The position numbers were made by a program, and so were the translations under genes. Below are positions 4,437 through 36,909 of a stretch of 39,903 bases of DNA, one piece after another. Positions within the stretch are counted from its first letter, which is position 1. The number at the start of each line of letters is the position of its first letter. The stretch lies in assembly GCA_964546195.1 (NCBI GenBank), contig CAZJJC010000219.1, positions 1-39,903 of the forward strand. The letters are read 5' to 3'. The stretch is from an uncultured Enterobacteriaceae bacterium (GTDB taxonomy: Bacteria; Pseudomonadota; Gammaproteobacteria; Burkholderiales; SG8-39). The notes beneath the pieces were generated by a model. That model was not told the DNA's origin. It saw nothing but the letters and a program-made list of their open reading frames with translations, and did no database searches.

Positions 4437-5246
4437 CTAACGCACTACGACCAGCGGCTTCAGGTTCAGTTGCGCCTCGATTCGCTGTGCGACCGAGCGC
4501 GCGTCGTCGCGCGAGCCGTAGGGCCCGACCTGCAGGCGCCACAGGTTGCCTGCGAGCAGCACCTGGGCCGCGTCCTTGAGCCAGGCGAGCTCCTGCGCCA
4601 CGCGTGCACGCAGGCTTTCGGCGTTTTCGCGCGTGCTGAACGCCCCGAGCTGGACATACAGTGCCGCGGCCTGCTTCTGCGGCTCGCCCGGCAGGATGCT
4701 CTCCAGTTCCACCTCGGCGTGGCCCGCCTGGATGTAACCGAGCTTGAGCGCCGCCGCGTACGACAGGTCGATGACGCGGCCCGGATGGAAAGGACCGCGG
4801 TCGTTCACGCGCACCACCACGCTGCGGCCGCTGCCGACGTGCGTTACGCGCACATAGCTGGGGATCGGCAGCGTGGGATGCGCCGCCGTCATGGCGTACA
4901 TGTCGTAGGTCTCGCCGCTCGCTGTTTTCTTGCCGTGGAAGCGCTTGCCGTACCAGCTCGCGAGGCCGCGCTGGCGAAACGGCTGCAGCCGCGCCAGCGG
5001 CTGGTAATCGCGGCCGAAAACGGTGTAGGGCCGGTTGGCATAGCGATGCAGCGGCTCGGCGCGCGGCACGGCGTCGGGCACCTGCGCCGCGTTCGCCGGC
5101 GGGTTCTCGTGCGGGCCGTCGTCCTTGTAATAGCCGCCTTTGCTGCGCGGCTCAGCCGGCGACGGCGCCTCGGGCGACGGCGCCTCGTAAGGCGGCGTGC
5201 TGGAGCAGCCCGCCAGGAGAAAGAGAAGAAATGCGAGGCGCTTCAC
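4437..5246 (-). CDS. rlpA: Septal ring lytic transglycosylase RlpA (lipoprotein, DPBB + SPOR)
   Basis: The C-terminal part of track ORF 4437..6029 is the real gene. GTG 5246 gives VKRLAFLLFLLAGCSS (lipobox LAGC). DPBB core GLASWYGKRFHGKKTASGETYD...RVNDRGPF and SPOR-like tail YVQLGAFSTRENAESL. GTGA overlap with the pyrC' stop. Confidence 0.88.
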   Translation of the reverse strand: MKRLAFLLFLLAGCSSTPPYEAPSPEAPSPAEPRSKGGYYKDDGPHENPPANAAQVPDAVPRAEPLHRYANRPYTVFGRDYQPLARLQPFRQRGLASWYGKRFHGKKTASGETYDMYAMTAAHPTLPIPSYVRVTHVGSGRSVVVRVNDRGPFHPGRVIDLSYAAALKLGYIQAGHAEVELESILPGEPQKQAAALYVQLGAFSTRENAESLRARVAQELAWLKDAAQVLLAGNLWRLQVGPYGSRDDARSVAQRIEAQLNLKPLVVVR

Positions 5247-6505
5247 GCTTCGTAGACCACGTTGCCCGCCACCACGGTGTAGCGCACGCGGCCCGCCACC
5301 TCGTAGCCCAGGAACGGCGTGTTCTTGCCCTGGCTTTTCAGCGTTTCGGCCGAGATCCGCAGCGGCGCTTCGGGATCGAAGATCGCGAGGTCGGCCGGCG
5401 CGCCGGGGGCGATGCGCCCGGAGGCGACGCCCAGGATGCGCGCCGGCTCGCAAGTGATGCGCGAGAGCGTCGCGGCGAGCGAGAGCTTTTGTGCCGCGCC
5501 CCACTTCAGCGCGAGCGGCAGCAGCAGCTCCAAGCCGGTGGCGCCCGGCTCGGCCTCGGCGAAGGGCAGGTGCTTGCCGTCCTCGTCGACCGGCGTGTGG
5601 TCGGACACCAGGCAGTCGATCGCGCCCTCCGCCAGGCCGCGCGCGAGCGCTTCGCGGTCGCGCGGGCTGCGCAGCGGAGGCTCCAGACGGCAATGCGGAT
5701 CGAAATAGCCCAGATCCCTTTCGGTAAGGTGAATATGATGGATCGCCGCGTCGCAGGTGACCGGGAGCTTCTCGTGCCTTGCCCTGCGCATGAGCTCTAC
5801 CGCGCCCGCGGTGGAAAGGCGGCAGACGTGCACCTGCGCGCCGGTGGCCCTCACCAGCTCGAGCAGCGTGGCGAGCGCGATGGTCTCGGCGAAGGGCGGA
5901 ATGCCGGGCAGGCCCAGCCGCGTCGCCACTTCGCCGTCGTGCGCCACCCCGCCCTTGGCGAGCCAGGCGTCCTCGACGCGCAGCCAGACCCGGTAGCCGA
6001 AGGTCGCCGCGTATTGCAGCGCGCGCCACAGCACCTGCGTGTCGGCGAGCGGCACGTTCGCCTGCGAGAAGGCGACGCAGCCCGCGTCGGTGAGCTGGCC
6101 CATCTCGGTCAGCGCCTCGCCTTTCAGGTTCACCGTGAGCGCGCCGATCGGGTATACGCGCGCCCGCGCCAGCGCCTTGGCGCGCCGGCGCAGCATGTCC
6201 ACCAGCCCCGGCTCGTCGAGCGGCGGATCGGTATCGGGCGGACAGGCGAGGCTGGTCACGCCGCCTGCGACCGCCGCGTCCATCTCGGATTCGAGCGTCG
6301 CCTTGTACTCCAGACCGGGCTCGCGCAGGCGCGCCGAGAGGTCGATGAAGCCGGGCGCCGCGACCAGGCCCCTGGCGTCGATGACGCGATCGGCTTTTTC
6401 CCTGAAGGGTTCCGAGATGCGTCCGTCGGACACGAAAACGTCGTCGAGCGCGTCCTTGCCGCTCGCCGGATCGACCACCCGAGCGTTCCTTATGTGGAGG
6501 CGCAT
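5243..6505 (-). CDS. pyrC: Dihydroorotase-like protein, probably the non-catalytic PyrC' type
   Basis: 420-aa amidohydrolase-fold ORF directly downstream of pyrB. The position that normally holds DxHxH reads GFIDLSARLREPG, so both His are missing. Confidence 0.85.
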   Translation of the reverse strand: MRLHIRNARVVDPASGKDALDDVFVSDGRISEPFREKADRVIDARGLVAAPGFIDLSARLREPGLEYKATLESEMDAAVAGGVTSLACPPDTDPPLDEPGLVDMLRRRAKALARARVYPIGALTVNLKGEALTEMGQLTDAGCVAFSQANVPLADTQVLWRALQYAATFGYRVWLRVEDAWLAKGGVAHDGEVATRLGLPGIPPFAETIALATLLELVRATGAQVHVCRLSTAGAVELMRRARHEKLPVTCDAAIHHIHLTERDLGYFDPHCRLEPPLRSPRDREALARGLAEGAIDCLVSDHTPVDEDGKHLPFAEAEPGATGLELLLPLALKWGAAQKLSLAATLSRITCEPARILGVASGRIAPGAPADLAIFDPEAPLRISAETLKSQGKNTPFLGYEVAGRVRYTVVAGNVVYEA

Positions 6506-27951: not shown

Positions 27952-29029
<1,078 letters not shown>

Positions 29030-30428: not shown

Positions 30429-30839
30429 TTAGTCGGACAGCTTTTCCAGGAGCGCGAGCAGCTGGGCGCGCTCCTGGACGCTTAAACGAGCGGCCACGCG
30501 CCGCTCGTGCAGCTGGATGCGCCGCTTCAGGCGCGCCACCAGCTCGCGGCCGGGATCGGTCAGCCACAGGCCGTTGGTGCGCCGGTCCGCGCCGCGCCGC
30601 CGCTCGATCAGCCCGCGGCTCTCGAGGACATCCACCACGCCGACCATGGTCGAGCGCTCGAGCGAGACCGCCTGCGCGAGGCGGCTCTGGGTGACCCCGG
30701 GGTTGGCCTCCAGCAGGAGCAGGATGCCGACCCGCCCCGGCGACAGCTCGGGAATGCTCGACGCGAAGTCTCGGAACACCGCCTGCTGGGCGCGCCGCAG
30801 CCGGTAACCGAGCAGGCTCGGGAGGATGCCGGGTTTCAT
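30429..30839 (-). CDS. MarR-family transcriptional regulator
   Basis: Winged-helix region GVTQSRLAQAVSLERSTMVGVVDVLESRGLIERRRGADRRTNGLWLT. ATG 30839 is preferred over the track start at 30872 because the latter would bury the intergenic palindrome inside the CDS. Confidence 0.85.
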   Translation of the reverse strand: MKPGILPSLLGYRLRRAQQAVFRDFASSIPELSPGRVGILLLLEANPGVTQSRLAQAVSLERSTMVGVVDVLESRGLIERRRGADRRTNGLWLTDPGRELVARLKRRIQLHERRVAARLSVQERAQLLALLEKLSD

Positions 30840-30852
30840 GCGCGTTTTCAGA

Positions 30853-30871
30853 TTTGTTTGGGGTCCAAACA
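30853..30871. promoter_or_regulatory. Palindromic operator candidate TTGTTTGG-GGT-CCAAACAA in the divergent marR/oxygenase promoter region
   Basis: Perfect 8-bp inverted arms with a 3-nt spacer, read directly. It overlaps a possible TTGTTT(30853)-N17-TACCAT(30876) promoter facing the + strand operon. Confidence 0.55.
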
Positions 30872-30904
30872 ATTGCTACCATCCTAGCCGAGCCGGCTGC
30901 GCGC

Positions 30905-31861
30905 ATGCAAATCACCCTCGAAGGCCATGACCGGCCCGTCCCGGTCGAGGCGGGCGACACCATCCTCGCCTCGCTGCTGCGCGCCGGCGTGCCGTTCCCG
31001 TTTTCCTGCCAGGCCGGCAACTGCGGCACCTGCAAATGCGAGCTCGTCTCCGGCGACATCCTGGAGCTGGAGCATTCTGAGCACGCCCTTTCGGCCGAGG
31101 AGCGCGCCAAGGGCATCATCCTCGCCTGCCGCAGCCAGGTATGGGACGACACCACGGTGCGGCGCATCGACGCCGAGGAGCTCATGCTGCATCCCTCGCG
31201 CGTCATGCGCTGCCGCATGCTCGGGCTCGAAGACCTGACCCCGGACATCAAGGGCCTGCGCCTTGCGCCGGAGGCGGGCGGTCCAATGACCTTCTCGGCC
31301 GGGCAGTACGCCGAGCTCGAGTTCGCGACCGGGCTGTCGCGCCATTATTCGATGGCCAACCGTCCCGACGAGCCCGAACTGCTGTTCCACGTGCACCACG
31401 TTCCCGGTGGACGCACCAGCGGCTACGTCGCCACCGAGCTCAAGGCCGGCGACAAGGTGAAGGTTTCGGGCCCGCTGGGCGTGAACTACCTGCGCGAGGC
31501 CCACCGCGGGCCGGTGCTGCTGGTCGCCGGCGGCAGCGGCCTCGCGCCCATCCGGTCGATCCTGTGCACCCTCCTTGAGCGCGGCCACCCGGCGCCGGTC
31601 ACCCTTTATTTCGGCGTTCGCAGCGAGCGCGACGTTTATCACGAGGGGCTGCTGAAGAACCTCGCCAGCCGCTTCCCGAGCTTCACTTATCAAATCGTGC
31701 TTGGCCCGCTGCACGAAAAAATTGAGCTGGGCGAGGCGGGAGACCTGATGGCCTACCTTGCCGGCCCGCCCACGATAGTGGAGCCCGCCAGCGCCAAGCT
31801 CGCCGCGCGCGGACTGGCGCCGCGGCAGATACACGCCGAGGCCTTTTACGACCAGGGCTAG
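30905..31861 (+). CDS. Oxygenase reductase: N-terminal plant-type 2Fe-2S ferredoxin fused to an FNR-like FAD/NAD(P)H domain
   Basis: ATG 30905 (MQITLEG...). Cluster motif CQAGNCGTCKC...ILACR, FAD motif RHYSMAN and NAD motif LLVAGGSGLAPI. This domain order resembles phenol/methane monooxygenase and AscD-type reductases and is the reverse of PaaE. Confidence 0.85.
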   Translation: MQITLEGHDRPVPVEAGDTILASLLRAGVPFPFSCQAGNCGTCKCELVSGDILELEHSEHALSAEERAKGIILACRSQVWDDTTVRRIDAEELMLHPSRVMRCRMLGLEDLTPDIKGLRLAPEAGGPMTFSAGQYAELEFATGLSRHYSMANRPDEPELLFHVHHVPGGRTSGYVATELKAGDKVKVSGPLGVNYLREAHRGPVLLVAGGSGLAPIRSILCTLLERGHPAPVTLYFGVRSERDVYHEGLLKNLASRFPSFTYQIVLGPLHEKIELGEAGDLMAYLAGPPTIVEPASAKLAARGLAPRQIHAEAFYDQG

Positions 31862-31864
31862 ACC

Positions 31865-32767
31865 ATGAACCTCAAGCACCGCGTGGCCATCGTGAGCGGC
31901 GGCGCCCGCGGCATCGGGCTTGCGATCGCTGAAGACCTGGCCGCGCGTGGCGCATCGGTGGTCATCGTCGATTCGGGCGTGTCGATTTCGGGGCAGCCGG
32001 AACAGCCCACCCTCGCCGAAGCGATCGTAAAGGGAAAGCAAGGCTGGGCAGCGGTGTGCGGCGACGTGGCGGACGCCGCGGTGGCGCGCACCGCAGTGGA
32101 AAGCGCGCAGGCGCGGTTCGGCGGCGTCGATATCGTGGTCAACAATGCGGCCATCATCCGCGACGCCTTCATTTTCAAATCGGACGATGCGGCCTGGGAT
32201 GCCGTAATCCGCACCAACCTTACCGGCGCCCAGCGCCTTCTCGCCGCCGCCACCCCGGCGATGCGCGAGCAGGCCAAGGCCGGCAGGCCGCCGGGCGCCA
32301 TCGTCAACATCGTGTCGAGCGCCGGTATCTACGGCAATTTCGGCCAGGCGGCGTACGGCGCGGCCAAGGCCGGCCTGCTCGGCCTGACGCGCGTCGTCGC
32401 GCACGACCTCGCCCGTTCCGGGATCCGCTGCAACGCCGTGGCGCCGTTTGCCGCCACGCGCGTCACCGAGAGCATCAAGCCGGCGAACGAGGCGCAGGCG
32501 GCCTACAAGCAGAAGGCCCTGCAAGTCCCGGCGCGGTACGTCGCCCGCCTCGTCAGCTTCCTCGCCAGCGAGGCGGCCGCCGGCATCTCCGGGCAGCTTT
32601 TCGGCGTGCGCGGCCGCGAGCTTTTCATTTTTTCGCAGTCCCGTCCCAAAGAGCGCGTCGTGCAGCCGCGCGAGGGCTTCGACGCAGCGGCGATCGGGCC
32701 GCTCGAGCCCCATTTCGCCGATCTCGTCACCGACCTGGAAGCGTTCTCGGGCGATCCGATTCTCTGA
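31865..32767 (+). CDS. SDR-family oxidoreductase, MFE-2-like (3-hydroxyacyl-CoA dehydrogenase-type) with C-terminal extension
   Basis: SGGARGIG, NNAAIIRD and S...YGAAK catalytic residues. GNFGQAAYGAAKAGLLGL and NAVAPFAATRVT resemble the dehydrogenase domain of type-2 multifunctional enzymes. 300 aa. Confidence 0.75.
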   Translation: MNLKHRVAIVSGGARGIGLAIAEDLAARGASVVIVDSGVSISGQPEQPTLAEAIVKGKQGWAAVCGDVADAAVARTAVESAQARFGGVDIVVNNAAIIRDAFIFKSDDAAWDAVIRTNLTGAQRLLAAATPAMREQAKAGRPPGAIVNIVSSAGIYGNFGQAAYGAAKAGLLGLTRVVAHDLARSGIRCNAVAPFAATRVTESIKPANEAQAAYKQKALQVPARYVARLVSFLASEAAAGISGQLFGVRGRELFIFSQSRPKERVVQPREGFDAAAIGPLEPHFADLVTDLEAFSGDPIL

Positions 32768-32778
32768 GGCACCCACGC

Positions 32779-33483
32779 ATGTCCGCCTACCCTACCGTCA
32801 AGACCGTCGAGGACTTCCGCCAGCAGCCCGAGGAGTACCAGGACGCGGTGCGCAAGATCGTGCGCAGCCACGCGCTGAACGAGCTATACGGCGCGCAGGT
32901 CTTCGACGAGCCGGCGATCAGGCTTGCCCCCACGCCCTATGCCAAATGGCTGACCTGCCGCGTGGCGATGGAGGAATACCACCACCATGTGCGCTTCAAG
33001 GAGCTCGCCGACCAGATCGGCGTCAAGGCCGAGGAGATGGACACGAAGCACAAGCGCCCGCTCAACATCTTCGAGGTGCCGCTGGAGAGCTGGGAGCAGT
33101 TCTGCGTGATCAAGATGCTGGGCGATCTCGCCGAGATCCTGCAGGTCGAGGACCTGCTGCACTGCTCCTTCGTCCCGCTGCGCAACATCGCGCGCACCAC
33201 CATGCCGGAGGAGAAGTTCCACGCCCAGTTCGGCCTGGATTTCTGCGTCGACCTGGTGGAGACCGACGAAGGCCGCGCCCGGGTGCAGCGCGCGGTCAAC
33301 GGCTTTTATCCCGAGGCGCCGAAGTTCTTCGGCGCGAGCGGCTCCAGGAACAACGAGCTCTACCGCAAGTACGGCCTCAAGCTACGCAGCAACGAGGACA
33401 TGCGGGCCGACTACATGGCGCGCGCCCGGAGCACGGTCGATCCGCTGGGCATCACGCTGCCCGAAGTTCGCCTGGCAGCGTGA
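32779..33483 (+). CDS. Ferritin-like diiron-carboxylate protein, possibly PaaA/PaaC-family (acyl-CoA oxygenase-like)
   Basis: ATG 32779, 234 aa. Two E...ExxH half-sites: E35 ... E65-E66-Y-H68 (AMEEYHHH) and E119 ... E144-E145-K-F-H148 (PEEKFH). The protein is predicted to be largely helical. Family assignment is from memory of the motif pattern only. Confidence 0.6.
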   Translation: MSAYPTVKTVEDFRQQPEEYQDAVRKIVRSHALNELYGAQVFDEPAIRLAPTPYAKWLTCRVAMEEYHHHVRFKELADQIGVKAEEMDTKHKRPLNIFEVPLESWEQFCVIKMLGDLAEILQVEDLLHCSFVPLRNIARTTMPEEKFHAQFGLDFCVDLVETDEGRARVQRAVNGFYPEAPKFFGASGSRNNELYRKYGLKLRSNEDMRADYMARARSTVDPLGITLPEVRLAA

Positions 33484-33527
33484 CCGCGCAAGCCGTTCCT
33501 GCGCAAGTACGCCCTATACTTTCCAGG

Positions 33528-35054
33528 ATGAATGCCGCAGAGCTTCTGCTGGGCCCGGATGCGCTCGCGCGCCATGGCGAGCGCAGCGCGCTCATCTGCG
33601 CCGGAGAGAACGTTTCGTATGCGCAAATGGCGGCGCGCGCGGCGCGCTCGAGCGGGGCGCTCGCAGCCCTGGGCGTGCGCCCCGGCGAACGCGTGCTCAT
33701 GCTCATGCGCGACACGCCGGAATTCGCCGCCGCCTGGCTCGGCGCCGTGCGGGCCGGAGCGGTGGCGGTTGCGCTCAACAACAAGACGACCGAGGCCGAG
33801 TACCGGCACATCCTTGCCGACAGCGGTGCGCGGCTGGTGATCGTGGAGGATGTCTTCGCCGGGATGCGGCCCGATCTGACTGCGCAGCTCGCCCTGGAAG
33901 GCCGCATTGCAGTTGCCGGCGCGGCAGCCGGCCTGCCGGCATGGCGCGACCTGCTGGACAAGGGGCCGGGAATGGCAGCGGTTGCGGCGGCGCCGGAGGC
34001 CCCGGCGTTCTCGCTATACTCCTCCGGCACCACCGGGCAGCCGAAGGGCATCGTGCATTCGCACCGCGCCTTTGCCTCGCTGGGCGGCGCTTTTCGCGCC
34101 TTCGGCATCGGCGCCGGCGACCGGGTCTTCACCACCTCCAAGTTTTTCTTTGCCTACGGCCTGGAGCACGGATTGCTCGCGCCGCTCGCCTGCGGCGCCA
34201 CCTCGCTCCTTTTCCCGGACTGGCCCGACGCGCAGGCGGTGACCGACATCGTCGAGCGCTATCGCCCCGCGGCGCTGTTCAGCGTTCCCACCCTGTATCG
34301 CCGCCTGCTCGCCGAGCCCGCGCAGCGCCTGGCGCCCTATCGCGCGGTGCGGCGCTTCGTCGCCGGGGGCGAACGTCTTTCGCCCCGGCTGGTCGAGCAA
34401 TGGCAGCGCGCAGTGGGCGGCGAGCTGCTCAACCTCTATGGCATGTCGGAGACCTTCTGTCCCTGCATGGTGACGCCCCCCGGGAGCTCCAACGGCAGCC
34501 GGACCGGGCTGCCGCTCGACGGCGTGGAGGTGCGCCTGCGCGACGGCGCGGGCAACGATCCAGGATCGGGCGAGCCCGGGGTGCTTTGGGTGCGCCATCC
34601 CGCCCAGGCGAGCGGCTATGCCAACCTTCCTGAGCAGACACGCGCGCAGTTCAGCGATGGCTGGTTCTGCAGCCGCGACGTGTTCGTGCGCGACGCCGAC
34701 GGGTTCTACGTCCACCAGGGCCGCTCCGACGAGCTGCTCAAGATCGCCGGCCAGTGGGTGCAGCCCGGCGAGCTGGAGGAGCTCGCCGGGCTGGAAGCGG
34801 CCATCGCCGAAGCCGCCTGCGTGTCGGTGCCCGACGCGGACGGCCTGGAGCGGCTCGCGCTCTTCGTCACTGCGACCGGGGATGCCGCGGCCGCGCAGCG
34901 CGCGGCGCTGCAGGCCTGCGAGCGCGCCCTGCCGCGCCACAAGCGGCCCAAGTGGGTGCGCGCGATCGACGAGCTGCCGCGCACCGCCACCGGCAAGGTG
35001 CAGCGCTTCAAGCTGCGCGAAATCCTGGAGCGCGAGCTCTCGGGCAAGGACTAA
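33528..35054 (+). CDS. Aryl-carboxylate-CoA ligase (benzoate / 4-hydroxybenzoate / anthranilate-CoA ligase family)
   Basis: ATG 33528. YSSGTTGQPKGIVHSH, FFAYGLEHGLL, YGMSET, GWFCSRDVFVRDADGFYVHQGRSDELLKIAGQWVQPGELE and LPRTATGKVQRFKLRE closely follow the motif set of the benzoate-CoA ligase subfamily. Confidence 0.85.
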   Translation: MNAAELLLGPDALARHGERSALICAGENVSYAQMAARAARSSGALAALGVRPGERVLMLMRDTPEFAAAWLGAVRAGAVAVALNNKTTEAEYRHILADSGARLVIVEDVFAGMRPDLTAQLALEGRIAVAGAAAGLPAWRDLLDKGPGMAAVAAAPEAPAFSLYSSGTTGQPKGIVHSHRAFASLGGAFRAFGIGAGDRVFTTSKFFFAYGLEHGLLAPLACGATSLLFPDWPDAQAVTDIVERYRPAALFSVPTLYRRLLAEPAQRLAPYRAVRRFVAGGERLSPRLVEQWQRAVGGELLNLYGMSETFCPCMVTPPGSSNGSRTGLPLDGVEVRLRDGAGNDPGSGEPGVLWVRHPAQASGYANLPEQTRAQFSDGWFCSRDVFVRDADGFYVHQGRSDELLKIAGQWVQPGELEELAGLEAAIAEAACVSVPDADGLERLALFVTATGDAAAAQRAALQACERALPRHKRPKWVRAIDELPRTATGKVQRFKLREILERELSGKD

Positions 35055-35078
35055 AATTGCGCTTTTCCAGAGGATGAA

Positions 35079-35771
35079 ATGGGTTACGTGATCTCGATGT
35101 GGTCCCCGCCGGCGCTGCCGGTCGCGGGCGCTTCCGACAGCTTTCCGGTGCGGCGCATTTTCTGCGTCGGCCGCAACTACGCCGAGCACCAGAAGGAGAT
35201 GGGCGGCGACGGCCGGGAGCAGCCGTTTTTCTTCATCAAGACCGAGTTCGCGCTCGTGCCGCGGGGCGGCGAGGTGCATTACCCGGCCAAGACATCGAAC
35301 TACCACTACGAAACGGAGCTGGTGGTGGCGCTTGCCAGGGGCGGGCGGCGCATCGACGCCAAGCGGGCGAACGACCACGTCTACGGCTACGCGGTCGGCC
35401 TGGACATGACGCGCCGCGACCTGCAGCAATGGGGCAAGGACCACGGCCGGCCGTGGGACTTCGGCAAGAATTTCGACGAGTCGGCGCCGTGCAGCGAGCT
35501 CGTGCCCGCGTCGAAGATCGGCCACCCCTCCAAGGGCGGGATCTGGCTCAACGTCAACGGCAAGCAGCGCCAGAAGGCCGATCTCGCCGACATGATCTGG
35601 TCGGTGCCCGAGCAGATCGCCTACCTCTCGGAGCACTACACGCTGGAGGCGGGCGACCTCATCTTTACGGGCACGCCGGCCGGCGTCGGCCCGGTCAAGC
35701 CGGGCGACGAGCTGCTCGCCGGCATCCATGCCGTGGGCGAGCTGAAGGTCAGGATCGCCCCGGCGTTGTGA
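35079..35771 (+). CDS. FAH-family hydrolase (small, fumarylpyruvate-hydrolase-like)
   Basis: 230 aa: RRIFCVGRNYAEH, YETELVVAL (metal ligands), GLDMTRRDLQ and LIFTGTPAGVG. Its size and its adjacency to a zeta-GST resemble NagK-type enzymes. Confidence 0.8.
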   Translation: MGYVISMWSPPALPVAGASDSFPVRRIFCVGRNYAEHQKEMGGDGREQPFFFIKTEFALVPRGGEVHYPAKTSNYHYETELVVALARGGRRIDAKRANDHVYGYAVGLDMTRRDLQQWGKDHGRPWDFGKNFDESAPCSELVPASKIGHPSKGGIWLNVNGKQRQKADLADMIWSVPEQIAYLSEHYTLEAGDLIFTGTPAGVGPVKPGDELLAGIHAVGELKVRIAPAL

Positions 35772-36418
35772 AGCTTTATACGTTCTTCCGCGGCTCCTCG
35801 CCGTTCAGGCTGCGCATCGCGCTGAACCTGAAAGGCCTGCCGTACGAGGCCATCCCGGTGCACCTGGGAAAGGGCGAGCACCGCAAGAGCGAGTTCGGTG
35901 CGGTGAATCCCCAGCAGCTGCTGCCCGCGCTGGTGCTCGACGACGGGCACGTGCTGAACCAGTCGCTCGCCATCATTGAGTACCTCGACGAGCTGCACCC
36001 GACTCCGCCGCTGCTGCCGGGAGACGCCAAAGCGCGCGCCCGGGTACGCAGCCTGTCGCTGCTCGTTGCGTGCGAGATCCATCCCCTCAACAACGCGCGT
36101 ACGCTCGCCTACCTGCGCAAGCAGCTCGGCCAGAACGAGGAGCAGGTGAATGCCTGGTACCGGCATTGGGTGGGTGACGGCCTGGCAAAGCTCGAAGCGC
36201 AGATGGCGCGCGGCGAGGGCACCGGCAGGTTCAGTCAAGGCGATGCACCCTCGATGGCGGACTGCTGCCTGGTGCCGCAGGTCTTCAACGCCCAGCGCTT
36301 CGGCTGCGACCTCGCGCCCTATCCCACGGTGATGCGCGTGTTCGGCGAGTGCATGAAGCTCGATGCCTTCGAGCGCGCGCAGCCCTCGAAGCAGCCCGAC
36401 GCGGAAGGTGCACGATGA
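35768..36418 (+). CDS. maiA: Zeta-class GST: maleylacetoacetate / maleylpyruvate isomerase
   Basis: GTG 35768 (GTGA overlap with the FAH gene): VKLYTFFRGSSPFRLRIALNLKG...NPQQLLPALV...LNQSLAIIEYLDE...IHPLNN, the zeta-GST signature. Confidence 0.85.
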   Translation: MKLYTFFRGSSPFRLRIALNLKGLPYEAIPVHLGKGEHRKSEFGAVNPQQLLPALVLDDGHVLNQSLAIIEYLDELHPTPPLLPGDAKARARVRSLSLLVACEIHPLNNARTLAYLRKQLGQNEEQVNAWYRHWVGDGLAKLEAQMARGEGTGRFSQGDAPSMADCCLVPQVFNAQRFGCDLAPYPTVMRVFGECMKLDAFERAQPSKQPDAEGAR

Positions 36419-36465
36419 AGCGCATCGCGCCCTACCGGTGATCGAGCGCGTCCTGGCGGCCTGGG

Positions 36466-36909
36466 CTACTTCGCGCGGAAGCGGCTCTTAAGCGCCTCCG
36501 GGATCGTCTCGCCTTTCATCGGCGTGCCCGGGCCGCCGACATGCCGGCCCCAGACCCGCGTCTCCTTTCCCTTCGCCAGCGCCGTTCCATCGCTTCTCAC
36601 GATGTCGTGCGCCACGACGAAGGACTTGCCCCCGAAGCGTGCGATGCGCGAGCGCACCTCGCAGCGGTCGCCGTGCTCCGCGGGGTAGAGAAACTGGCAC
36701 TCGGCGGATACCAGCGGCATCGCGGCGTGCTGCGCTTTCATCCACTTGGGGCCGTAGCCCGCCGCGTCGAACAACGCCCAGCTAGCCGCATCGATCCAGC
36801 GGAAGTAGGTCGGGTAGAAGATGATGCCGGCAGGATCGCAATCGCCCCACTGCACCTGGCAGGCGAAGACGTTCGTTATCGAGGGAAATTCGTCGGCTTG
36901 CTGATCCAT
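36466..36909 (-). CDS. 4HBT/YbgC-type hotdog acyl-CoA thioesterase
   Basis: Start trimmed to ATG 36909: [44 protein letters not shown]..., with catalytic-Asp context D-x-D-P-A-G-I-I-F-Y. 147 aa. Convergent with maiA. Confidence 0.8.

Follow-up and report, generated by a model that had tools for sequence, protein, structure and literature searches.

The contig CAZJJC010000219.1 of an uncultured bacterium (GenBank assembly GCA_964546195.1) was analysed over its whole length of 39,903 nt, hereafter called the window, with attention to a cluster of eight genes at positions 30429-36909. This cluster probably encodes the upper part of a pathway, under MarR control, that would convert an aromatic carboxylate to gentisate by way of CoA esters, together with two of the lower steps. 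At its centre are three genes encoding a BenC-type reductase, a short-chain dehydrogenase/reductase (SDR) and a small PaaA-like diiron protein, which would together make up a three-component oxygenase for an aryl-CoA ester. An earlier note, made from the letters of this DNA, had listed the open reading frames with spacings of 3-44 nt, and all eight were recovered at the same coordinates, the plus-strand gaps being 3, 11, 44 and 24 nt with one 4-nt overlap in which the GTG start of the isomerase gene overlaps the stop of the small hydrolase gene. The profile-HMM check of its family assignments returned every predicted family in Pfam. The features of the cluster, including the remnant of a gene for a conserved protein that we call sm167 and that is present in the related locus L001, are as follows.

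30429-30839, minus strand: gene for a MarR-family regulator (PF01047/PF12802, 2.5e-10 in Pfam)
30854-30872, no strand: candidate MarR operator, a perfect inverted repeat in the 65-bp region between marR and the reductase gene
30905-31861, plus strand: reductase gene (Fer2 3e-16, with FAD_binding_6 and NAD_binding_1)
31865-32767, plus strand: gene for the SDR, 300 aa (adh_short 7e-43)
32779-33483, plus strand: gene for the diiron protein, 234 aa (PaaA_PaaC, PF05138, 6e-26)
33484-33519, plus strand: sm167 remnant of 12 codons, PRKPFLRKYALY (tblastn, 10 of 12 identities to sm167 of L001)
33528-35054, plus strand: ligase gene (AMP-binding 4e-80, with AMP-binding_C)
35079-35771, plus strand: gene for a small hydrolase of the fumarylacetoacetate hydrolase family, FAH (FAA_hydrolase 1.3e-56)
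35768-36418, plus strand: gene for a zeta-class glutathione S-transferase (GST) isomerase (GST_N/C; TIGR01262 maiA 1.1e-82)
36466-36909, minus strand: thioesterase gene, convergent with the operon (4HBT_2 1.9e-15; PF13279 and PF03061)

The proposed catalytic component is the 234-aa diiron protein. It scored 91.6 bits against PF05138 (cut-off 28.5) and missed the PaaA equivalog TIGR02156 of NCBIfam (82.4 bits against 280), while its sequence matches in the PDB were PaaA (6e-15) and the 235-aa Sulfolobus protein SSO1313 (8e-10). An AlphaFold2 model built on 44 homologues reached a pLDDT of 94.3, and its top Foldseek match was PaaA (4iit; TMq 0.89, root mean square deviation 1.6 Å over ~230 residues, 24-26% identity), followed by SSO1313 and then by the non-catalytic PaaC and by BoxB. 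The predicted diiron ligands E35, E66, H69, D116, E145 and H148 align with E42, E72, H75, D126, E155 and H158 of PaaA; in the family alignment H69 is invariant, E35, E66, E145 and H148 are nearly so, and D116 is the majority residue. The residue known as the lysine bridge of PaaA is Lys68 (PMC4498308), with which Val62 of the window protein aligns, and the protein is ~75 residues shorter than PaaA (234 vs ~309 aa). Homologues are abundant in metagenomes (2046 at E<=1e-5), and in a library of representatives at 50% identity the family forms a compact clade with identity falling fast to 30-38%. The family match, the PaaA fold and the six ligands agree with the earlier description of this protein as a diiron carboxylate protein, and on its sequence and model we are confident in regarding it as a predicted stand-alone PaaA-type diiron oxygenase, the putative catalytic component, for which we use the name mini-PaaA.

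The reductase is, as judged from its domain order, a class IB NAD(P)H:ferredoxin-type enzyme of the BenC/MmoC arrangement, with an N-terminal plant-type 2Fe-2S domain (Fer2, residues 3-78) followed by FNR-like FAD and NAD domains (FAD_binding_6, 108-192; NAD_binding_1, 206-263). It carries the motifs C-x4-C-x2-C, RHYS and GGSGLAP. The best NCBIfam model was BenC (8e-53), whose equivalog cut-off was missed at 179.7 bits against 430, and the BoxA model gave only 1.6e-8. The SDR matched best, among PDB entries, the (3R)-hydroxyacyl-CoA dehydrogenase of Candida MFE-2 (2et6, 1e-62), with FabG enzymes at ~1e-35, and the nearest NCBIfam models were MFE-2-like 3-oxoacyl reductases, all scoring below equivalog cut-offs. 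Across 47 family members the GGxxGIG motif and residues S151, Y164 and K168 are retained, and the enzyme appears catalytically intact; by its PDB scores it is far closer to CoA-ester dehydrogenases than to FabG. Its role would be the NAD+-dependent oxidation, and thereby the re-aromatisation, of a ring-hydroxylated dihydro-aryl-CoA.

The conservation of this arrangement was followed by a scan of species-representative genomes, which yielded 210 related stretches, mostly from uncultured Burkholderiales, Polyangiaceae and Alphaproteobacteria and also from cultured Iodidimonas; the best 80 of these (loci L001 onward) were compared, and downstream genes were counted in the 50 loci with at least 7.5 kb of downstream sequence, referred to as long loci. 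The SDR gene immediately precedes the diiron gene in all 76 loci with enough sequence, and the reductase gene is found upstream of this pair in 64 of 71. The pairing extends to more distant homologues at 49% (L081) and 38% (L083) identity; the neighbour of a 33% homologue (P0153) is a TetR gene and no SDR gene, hence the SDR pairing marks this subfamily only. Since an intact SDR adjoins the diiron protein in every locus with enough sequence, the simplest interpretation is a dearomatisation of the ring by the diiron enzyme, which would form an epoxide like PaaA and BoxB, after which the SDR would restore aromaticity. Among the long loci, FAH was found in 41, the GST isomerase in 33, a thioesterase of the 4-hydroxybenzoyl-CoA thioesterase (4HBT) family in 13 and a CoA-activating enzyme in 34, the latter being an AMP ligase in the clade of the window and an NDP-forming acyl-CoA-synthetase-like protein elsewhere; one locus had a CaiB-type CoA transferase. 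A marR gene occupies the same position in 39 of the 62 loci with enough upstream sequence, and in other versions ABC or TRAP carboxylate transporter genes border the cluster. The co-occurrence check that had been proposed with the earlier note was thus borne out for the SDR, the reductase, FAH, GST, the thioesterase and the CoA-activating enzyme. In L001 the marR gene is followed directly by the SDR gene and the reductase gene is missing (L001:6568-8001).

The link to gentisate comes from the gene order in these relatives. Among loci with a diiron protein <=72% identical to that of the window, most encode immediately after it a bicupin dioxygenase that passes the gentisate 1,2-dioxygenase model TIGR02272 (556 bits against 442). 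Of the 50 long loci, 29 have a gentisate 1,2-dioxygenase gene next after the diiron gene, and over all 80 loci such a gene is present in 53. Since the trio of reductase, SDR and diiron genes is followed there by gentisate 1,2-dioxygenase, FAH, GST and a CoA-activating enzyme, the lower pathway that the earlier note had called a maleyl/fumaryl type is best read as the gentisate pathway. Where loci contain the dioxygenase, their FAH and GST share 53-66% identity with the window orthologues. The window FAH, whose best PDB match was annotated as a putative fumarylpyruvate hydrolase (4maq, 8e-76) and whose ratio of nonsynonymous to synonymous substitution rates (dN/dS) was 0.09-0.19, is probably a fumarylpyruvate hydrolase. 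The GST is by family match a predicted zeta isomerase acting on maleylpyruvate or maleylacetoacetate, passing the maleylacetoacetate isomerase model TIGR01262 with 276.8 bits against 171.

The thioesterase matched 4-hydroxybenzoyl-CoA thioesterases in the PDB (5wh9, 4e-19; 1bvq, 3e-15), and its GDCDPAGI motif, which holds the catalytic Asp, is identical to that of the Pseudomonas enzyme. The same 4HBT subfamily includes BH1999, which has been characterised as a gentisyl-CoA thioesterase (PMC516016). Homologues at 34-39% identity lie within the operon beside GST in the distant loci L018, L020, L022, L024, L027, L032, L043 and L070, and this class I hotdog enzyme would hydrolyse a hydroxylated aryl-CoA, namely gentisyl-CoA. 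The ligase found its best PDB matches in benzoate-CoA ligase (2v7b, 4e-81) and in anthranilate-CoA ligase (4wv3), and scored below the cut-off of the benzoate-CoA ligase model TIGR02262 (357.7 bits against 375.25). Its substrate pocket retains the Phe-Ala-Tyr of BadA and 2v7b and has Phe-Cys-Pro in place of Leu-His-Ile, a change that is conserved in the clade; at window positions 34455-34490 (ligase residues ~310-321) SETFCPCM stands where the aligned benzoate-CoA ligases have TEMLHIF(L). The His is replaced by Cys in most ligases of the clade, with Ser in one, and a canonical benzoate-CoA ligase pocket was ruled out on these residues. The His-to-Cys change may mark specificity for a different aromatic acid. 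By its sequence the enzyme is clearly an aryl-CoA ligase relative, a member of the benzoate-CoA ligase family predicted to act on an aromatic carboxylate through an altered pocket. A different composition of the lower steps was seen in L018 (10486-11709), L020 and L024 (10526-11863), where a full-length fumarylacetoacetase (TIGR01266, 539 bits) follows GST and replaces the small FAH, a hint that the ring-cleavage product handled by some versions is homogentisate-like or substituted.

In the route that we propose, the ligase would form the aryl-CoA, and the BenC-type reductase would deliver electrons from NAD(P)H via FAD and its 2Fe-2S cluster to the single-subunit PaaA-like diiron protein, which would oxygenate, and probably epoxidise, the aryl-CoA ring. 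The MFE-2-type SDR would then oxidise a non-aromatic ring alcohol in the position beta to the thioester, formally that of a 3-hydroxyacyl-CoA, to yield aromatic gentisyl-CoA, from which the 4HBT thioesterase would free gentisate. The ring would be opened by a gentisate 1,2-dioxygenase presumed to be encoded elsewhere in the genome, and the GST-zeta isomerase and the small FAH would convert maleylpyruvate into fumarate and pyruvate. MarR, bound to a conserved palindrome, would repress the operon until an aromatic ligand binds. The substrate would be benzoyl-CoA or a hydroxybenzoyl-CoA, and the chemistry of the single steps and the product are proposed on the same footing. The earlier note had sketched the same sequence of ligation, oxygenation, re-aromatisation by the SDR and release by the thioesterase into a maleyl/fumaryl route, and its outline gains support from the linkage to gentisate dioxygenase and from the BzdR/BoxR-type regulators described below, as far as gene content can tell.

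The region between marR and the reductase gene holds an inverted repeat with perfect 8-nt arms, TTGTTTGG-N3-CCAAACAA (30854-30872, repeat search), which is conserved across nine loci despite diverged flanks (the relatives being L002, L003, L009, L010, L014, L015, L016 and L023). With the divergent marR gene this makes an arrangement typical of MarR operators, and the palindrome is a candidate operator. A possible TTGTTT-17-TACCAT promoter at 30854-30882, which overlaps the palindrome, was proposed by inspection and was not called by the consensus scan; that scan for promoters and terminators returned one promoter-like site (36939, probably that of metH) and one weak terminator-like site in FAH, fewer than expected by chance. 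For marR, whose dN/dS was 0.16-0.24, the ATG at 30839 is preferred as start over the TTG at 30872, because the latter would fall inside the operator palindrome. The start codon context of the reductase gene, ATGCAAATCAC, is also conserved. Six Polyangiaceae loci (L033, L035, L044, L052, L066 and L077; locus coordinates ~4950-6010) have a BzdR/BoxR-family regulator in place of MarR directly upstream of the module, with an HTH_XRE and a shikimate-kinase-like domain (NF006015, 321 bits against 204). The studied members of this family respond to benzoyl-CoA. Upstream of the regulator these loci carry genes for an AMP-ligase, a thiolase and a second SDR (255 aa), which suggests that the side chain of a phenylpropanoid is shortened by beta-oxidation and that the resulting aryl-CoA feeds the module.

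A conserved protein of 160-180 aa, sm167, is encoded after the diiron or the dioxygenase gene in at least 45 of the 80 loci (for example L001:8702-9172 and L028:9756-10259). Its invariant residues are, in L001 numbering, W5, F6, H130, F132, K135 and the run W144-P145-L146, and it had neither a noteworthy Pfam match at E<=10 nor a match in the PDB; it may serve the oxygenase in coupling or assembly. Its only trace in the window is the remnant listed above, which sits immediately behind the stop codon of the diiron gene, where synteny would place sm167, and corresponds to residues 128-139 of L001 sm167, within the conserved C-terminal motif. In L002, L003 and L010 sm167 was lost through different deletions. 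In the cultured Iodidimonas muriae and I. nitroreducens (L037 and L042) the gene set is complete, with dioxygenase and sm167. The eight window genes compared with those of five relatives gave dN/dS values of 0.09-0.36, the same range as the flanking amtB, and are therefore considered to be kept by purifying selection. The cluster is bordered by the P-II/AmtB genes (glnK-amtB) on one side and by metH on the other, and the same order was found in the related Burkholderiales metagenome-assembled genomes L001, L003, L010 and L015 at 77-85% nucleotide identity. Because it occupies the same amtB-metH position in these four, the block is lineage-conserved; its GC content of 0.66-0.72 equals that of the flanks, and recent insertion or horizontal transfer was ruled out on these two grounds, so that the accessory-looking inserted block of the earlier note is not what the comparison supports.

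Several observations weigh against the proposed route to gentisate. The ligase pocket differs from that of benzoate-CoA ligases and no curated equivalog is reached; the role of the SDR is a deduction from conservation, because a phenol-forming hydroxylation needs no dehydrogenase; sm167 is deleted in the window, and this copy could be impaired if sm167 is essential. A gentisate dioxygenase gene is absent from the 39.9-kb window and from the 8 kb around the cluster in every relative at >=74% identity, and because no dioxygenase lies nearby, the gentisate link in the clade of the window rests on FAH/GST orthology. The pcaHG and pcaB-like genes of close relatives could point to protocatechuate instead. 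Within the same pathway frame, the oxygenase may hydroxylate, in one direct step, an aryl-CoA that already carries a hydroxyl group, with the SDR in an auxiliary role that is, for example, structural, rescues a dearomatised side product or recycles a cofactor; the candidate reactions are 6-hydroxylation of 3-hydroxybenzoyl-CoA, 5-hydroxylation of salicylyl-CoA, and ipso-hydroxylation of 4-hydroxybenzoyl-CoA with an NIH shift. We regard this as possible and worth weighing, if on balance unlikely. The ligase scored best against HbdA, the 3-hydroxybenzoate-CoA ligase model (8e-131), but far under its cut-off (436.9 bits against 1000); Cys and Pro in place of His and Ile are compatible with a substituted benzoate, and the characterised CoA-dependent gentisate routes all begin with hydroxybenzoates. 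However, direct hydroxylation leaves unexplained why an intact dehydrogenase of the CoA-ester type is adjacent in 76 of 76 loci, and the BzdR/BoxR-type regulators of the Polyangiaceae point to benzoyl-CoA. A more tentative proposal still is an undescribed route in which the trio takes benzoyl-CoA itself to gentisyl-CoA. Mini-PaaA would make the 2,3-epoxide, as BoxB does, water at C5 would open it to 2,5-dihydroxy-2,5-dihydrobenzoyl-CoA, and the SDR would oxidise the C2 alcohol, a beta-hydroxyacyl-CoA, to gentisyl-CoA, with regeneration of the NADH spent on the oxygenase.

Three other explanations would take the cluster away from gentisate formation. A protocatechuate branch in this clade, with protocatechuyl-CoA, the thioesterase and PcaHG as its steps and with FAH and GST as leftovers or serving another substrate, is improbable in our view. 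It draws on pcaH and pcaG genes between the GST and thioesterase genes of the close relatives L001, L002, L003 (11659-14123), L004, L008, L010, L012 and L015, both above equivalog cut-offs (357 and 225 bits), on a pcaB-like gene added in several of them (341.5 bits, cut-off 355.75), and on the lack of a gentisate dioxygenase gene near the cluster in this clade. Against it, neither pcaHG nor any other pca gene was found in the window, which also lacks an NDP-forming synthetase; the pca block is variably oriented, as a separate module would be, with inversion in L004 and L008 and, in some loci, the same orientation as the thioesterase gene; FAH and GST are under purifying selection and orthologous to those beside gentisate dioxygenase; and a beta-hydroxyacyl-CoA-type SDR suits oxidation at ring C2 better than at C3/C4. 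That the window copy is a decaying relic of a lost pathway is very improbable: the dioxygenase is missing, sm167 is reduced to a remnant, L001 is without the reductase and sm167 was deleted independently in other relatives, but all eight reading frames are intact and constrained to the same degree as amtB, and conservation extends to the operator and the start codon context. We give the least weight to a ring opening of the Paa/Box kind, in which a non-oxygenolytic cleavage of the epoxide would take place at the CoA-ester stage, the SDR would act in a lower part resembling beta-oxidation, as a 3-hydroxyacyl-CoA dehydrogenase, and the gentisate genes would be mere neighbours. The nearest structures, PaaA and BoxB, are both epoxidases and the best match of the SDR is a dehydrogenase of beta-oxidation; yet enzymes of the crotonase type (PaaG/BoxC), a PaaZ or BoxD aldehyde dehydrogenase and a thiolase are absent from the window and from most relatives, the linkage with gentisate dioxygenase, FAH and GST is too regular for chance, and the thioesterase recurs in the operon.

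To our knowledge, aerobic hybrid oxygenation of aryl-CoA esters is known from few enzyme types, namely PaaABCE, BoxAB and the flavin-dependent aryl-CoA hydroxylases. The earlier note had found the cluster to lack PaaB/C/D, a BoxB-sized oxygenase, BoxC/PaaG/PaaZ and a flavin hydroxylase, and the Pfam and open reading frame data agree: none of these genes is present in the cluster, whose gaps are too small for one, and PaaB, PaaC and PaaD were found neither in the window nor in the 80 related loci. The phenylacetyl-CoA 1,2-epoxidase PaaABC(D)E of E. coli and Pseudomonas shares with it the PaaA fold with six ligands, an NAD(P)H/2Fe-2S reductase and a likely aryl-CoA substrate. It differs in the partner subunits PaaB/C/D, in the ring-opening enzymes PaaG and PaaZ, in its lysine bridge (Val62 here for Lys68), in a PaaA equivalog that mini-PaaA misses and in a reductase, PaaE, of class IA order where the present one is Fer2-first (BenC/MmoC); the adjoining SDR and the downstream gentisate genes also set the cluster apart. 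The benzoyl-CoA 2,3-epoxidase BoxAB of Azoarcus evansii is likewise a diiron enzyme for a benzoyl-CoA-type thioester, its structural matches being weaker than those of PaaA but significant (TMq 0.70-0.76), and BzdR/BoxR-type regulators accompany some versions of the cluster. BoxB is, however, ~470 aa long vs 234 (TMt 0.36-0.40), BoxA is a different type of reductase, and BoxC/BoxD have no counterpart here, where the ring is presumably re-aromatised and not opened. SSO1313 (PDB 4mud), a structural-genomics entry from Sulfolobus titled ring oxidation complex/phenylacetic acid degradation-like protein, is also a stand-alone PaaA-like protein of ~235 aa (TMt 0.88), with an identity to the window protein of only 20-21%.

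The CoA-dependent hydroxylation to gentisyl-CoA followed by a thioesterase is an established logic, as in SdgC, PhgABC and BH1999 (PMC516016). The cluster has in common with SdgABC of Streptomyces sp. WA46, PhgABC of Brevibacillus and the BH1999 cluster of Bacillus halodurans a ligase, a predicted aryl-CoA hydroxylation, a hotdog thioesterase and the gentisate intermediate. The hydroxylases of the SdgABC/PhgABC type are flavoproteins, whereas a diiron protein with reductase and SDR stands in their place here and no flavin monooxygenase gene is present in the cluster. In BenABC-BenD, too, a BenC-like reductase feeds a dearomatising oxygenase and an SDR of the same operon re-aromatises the product, an analogy that may apply here with a diiron in place of a Rieske oxygenase, a CoA ester as substrate and an SDR of the MFE-2 and not the BenD type. 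Since equivalogs are missed, partners and ring-opening enzymes are absent and the reductase class differs, the cluster is not a member of PaaABCE, BoxAB, SdgABC or PhgABC; by its gene content it resembles both the CoA-dependent gentisate routes and the diiron aryl-CoA epoxidases and belongs to none. The earlier remark that no described pathway matches it was upheld, as none with this oxygenase module was found in the full-text literature, subscription journals not being covered.

The module is widespread and routinely mis-annotated as PaaA, and it is a candidate for gentisate formation from CoA-activated aromatic acids. It encodes a PaaA-type catalytic subunit without PaaB/PaaC, which may therefore work without them. 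If the mechanism through epoxide, diol and dehydrogenase holds, it would amount to a net cofactor-neutral dihydroxylation of an aryl-CoA. If the benzoyl-CoA version holds, it would join the Box pathway and the flavin benzoyl-CoA 3-monooxygenase as the third way of processing benzoyl-CoA aerobically. Benzoate is reported to be degraded via benzoyl-CoA and gentisate in work that is decades old (Altenschmidt in 1993, Niemetz in 1995 and Kiemer in 1996), and the benzoyl-CoA version would supply genes for these reports.

Some further variation was seen around the module. In L006 (8832-13628) the ligase and FAH genes are tandemly duplicated. A betaproteobacterial subgroup, L047-L080 (e.g. L049:10650-15900 and L076:10133-15514), has three genes between FAH and the NDP-forming acyl-CoA synthetase, encoding a BKACE-family enzyme, a PdxA-like dehydrogenase and a DUF1537-type (SBD_N/NBD_C) kinase, and carries upstream the genes for a 581-aa pyrroloquinoline quinone (PQQ)-dehydrogenase-like protein and a small c-type cytochrome. 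In the window a Gcw_chp-family protein (PF09694, a putative outer-membrane protein) is encoded at 27952-28677, directly upstream of glnK-amtB, and the same arrangement was found in the related metagenome-assembled genomes.

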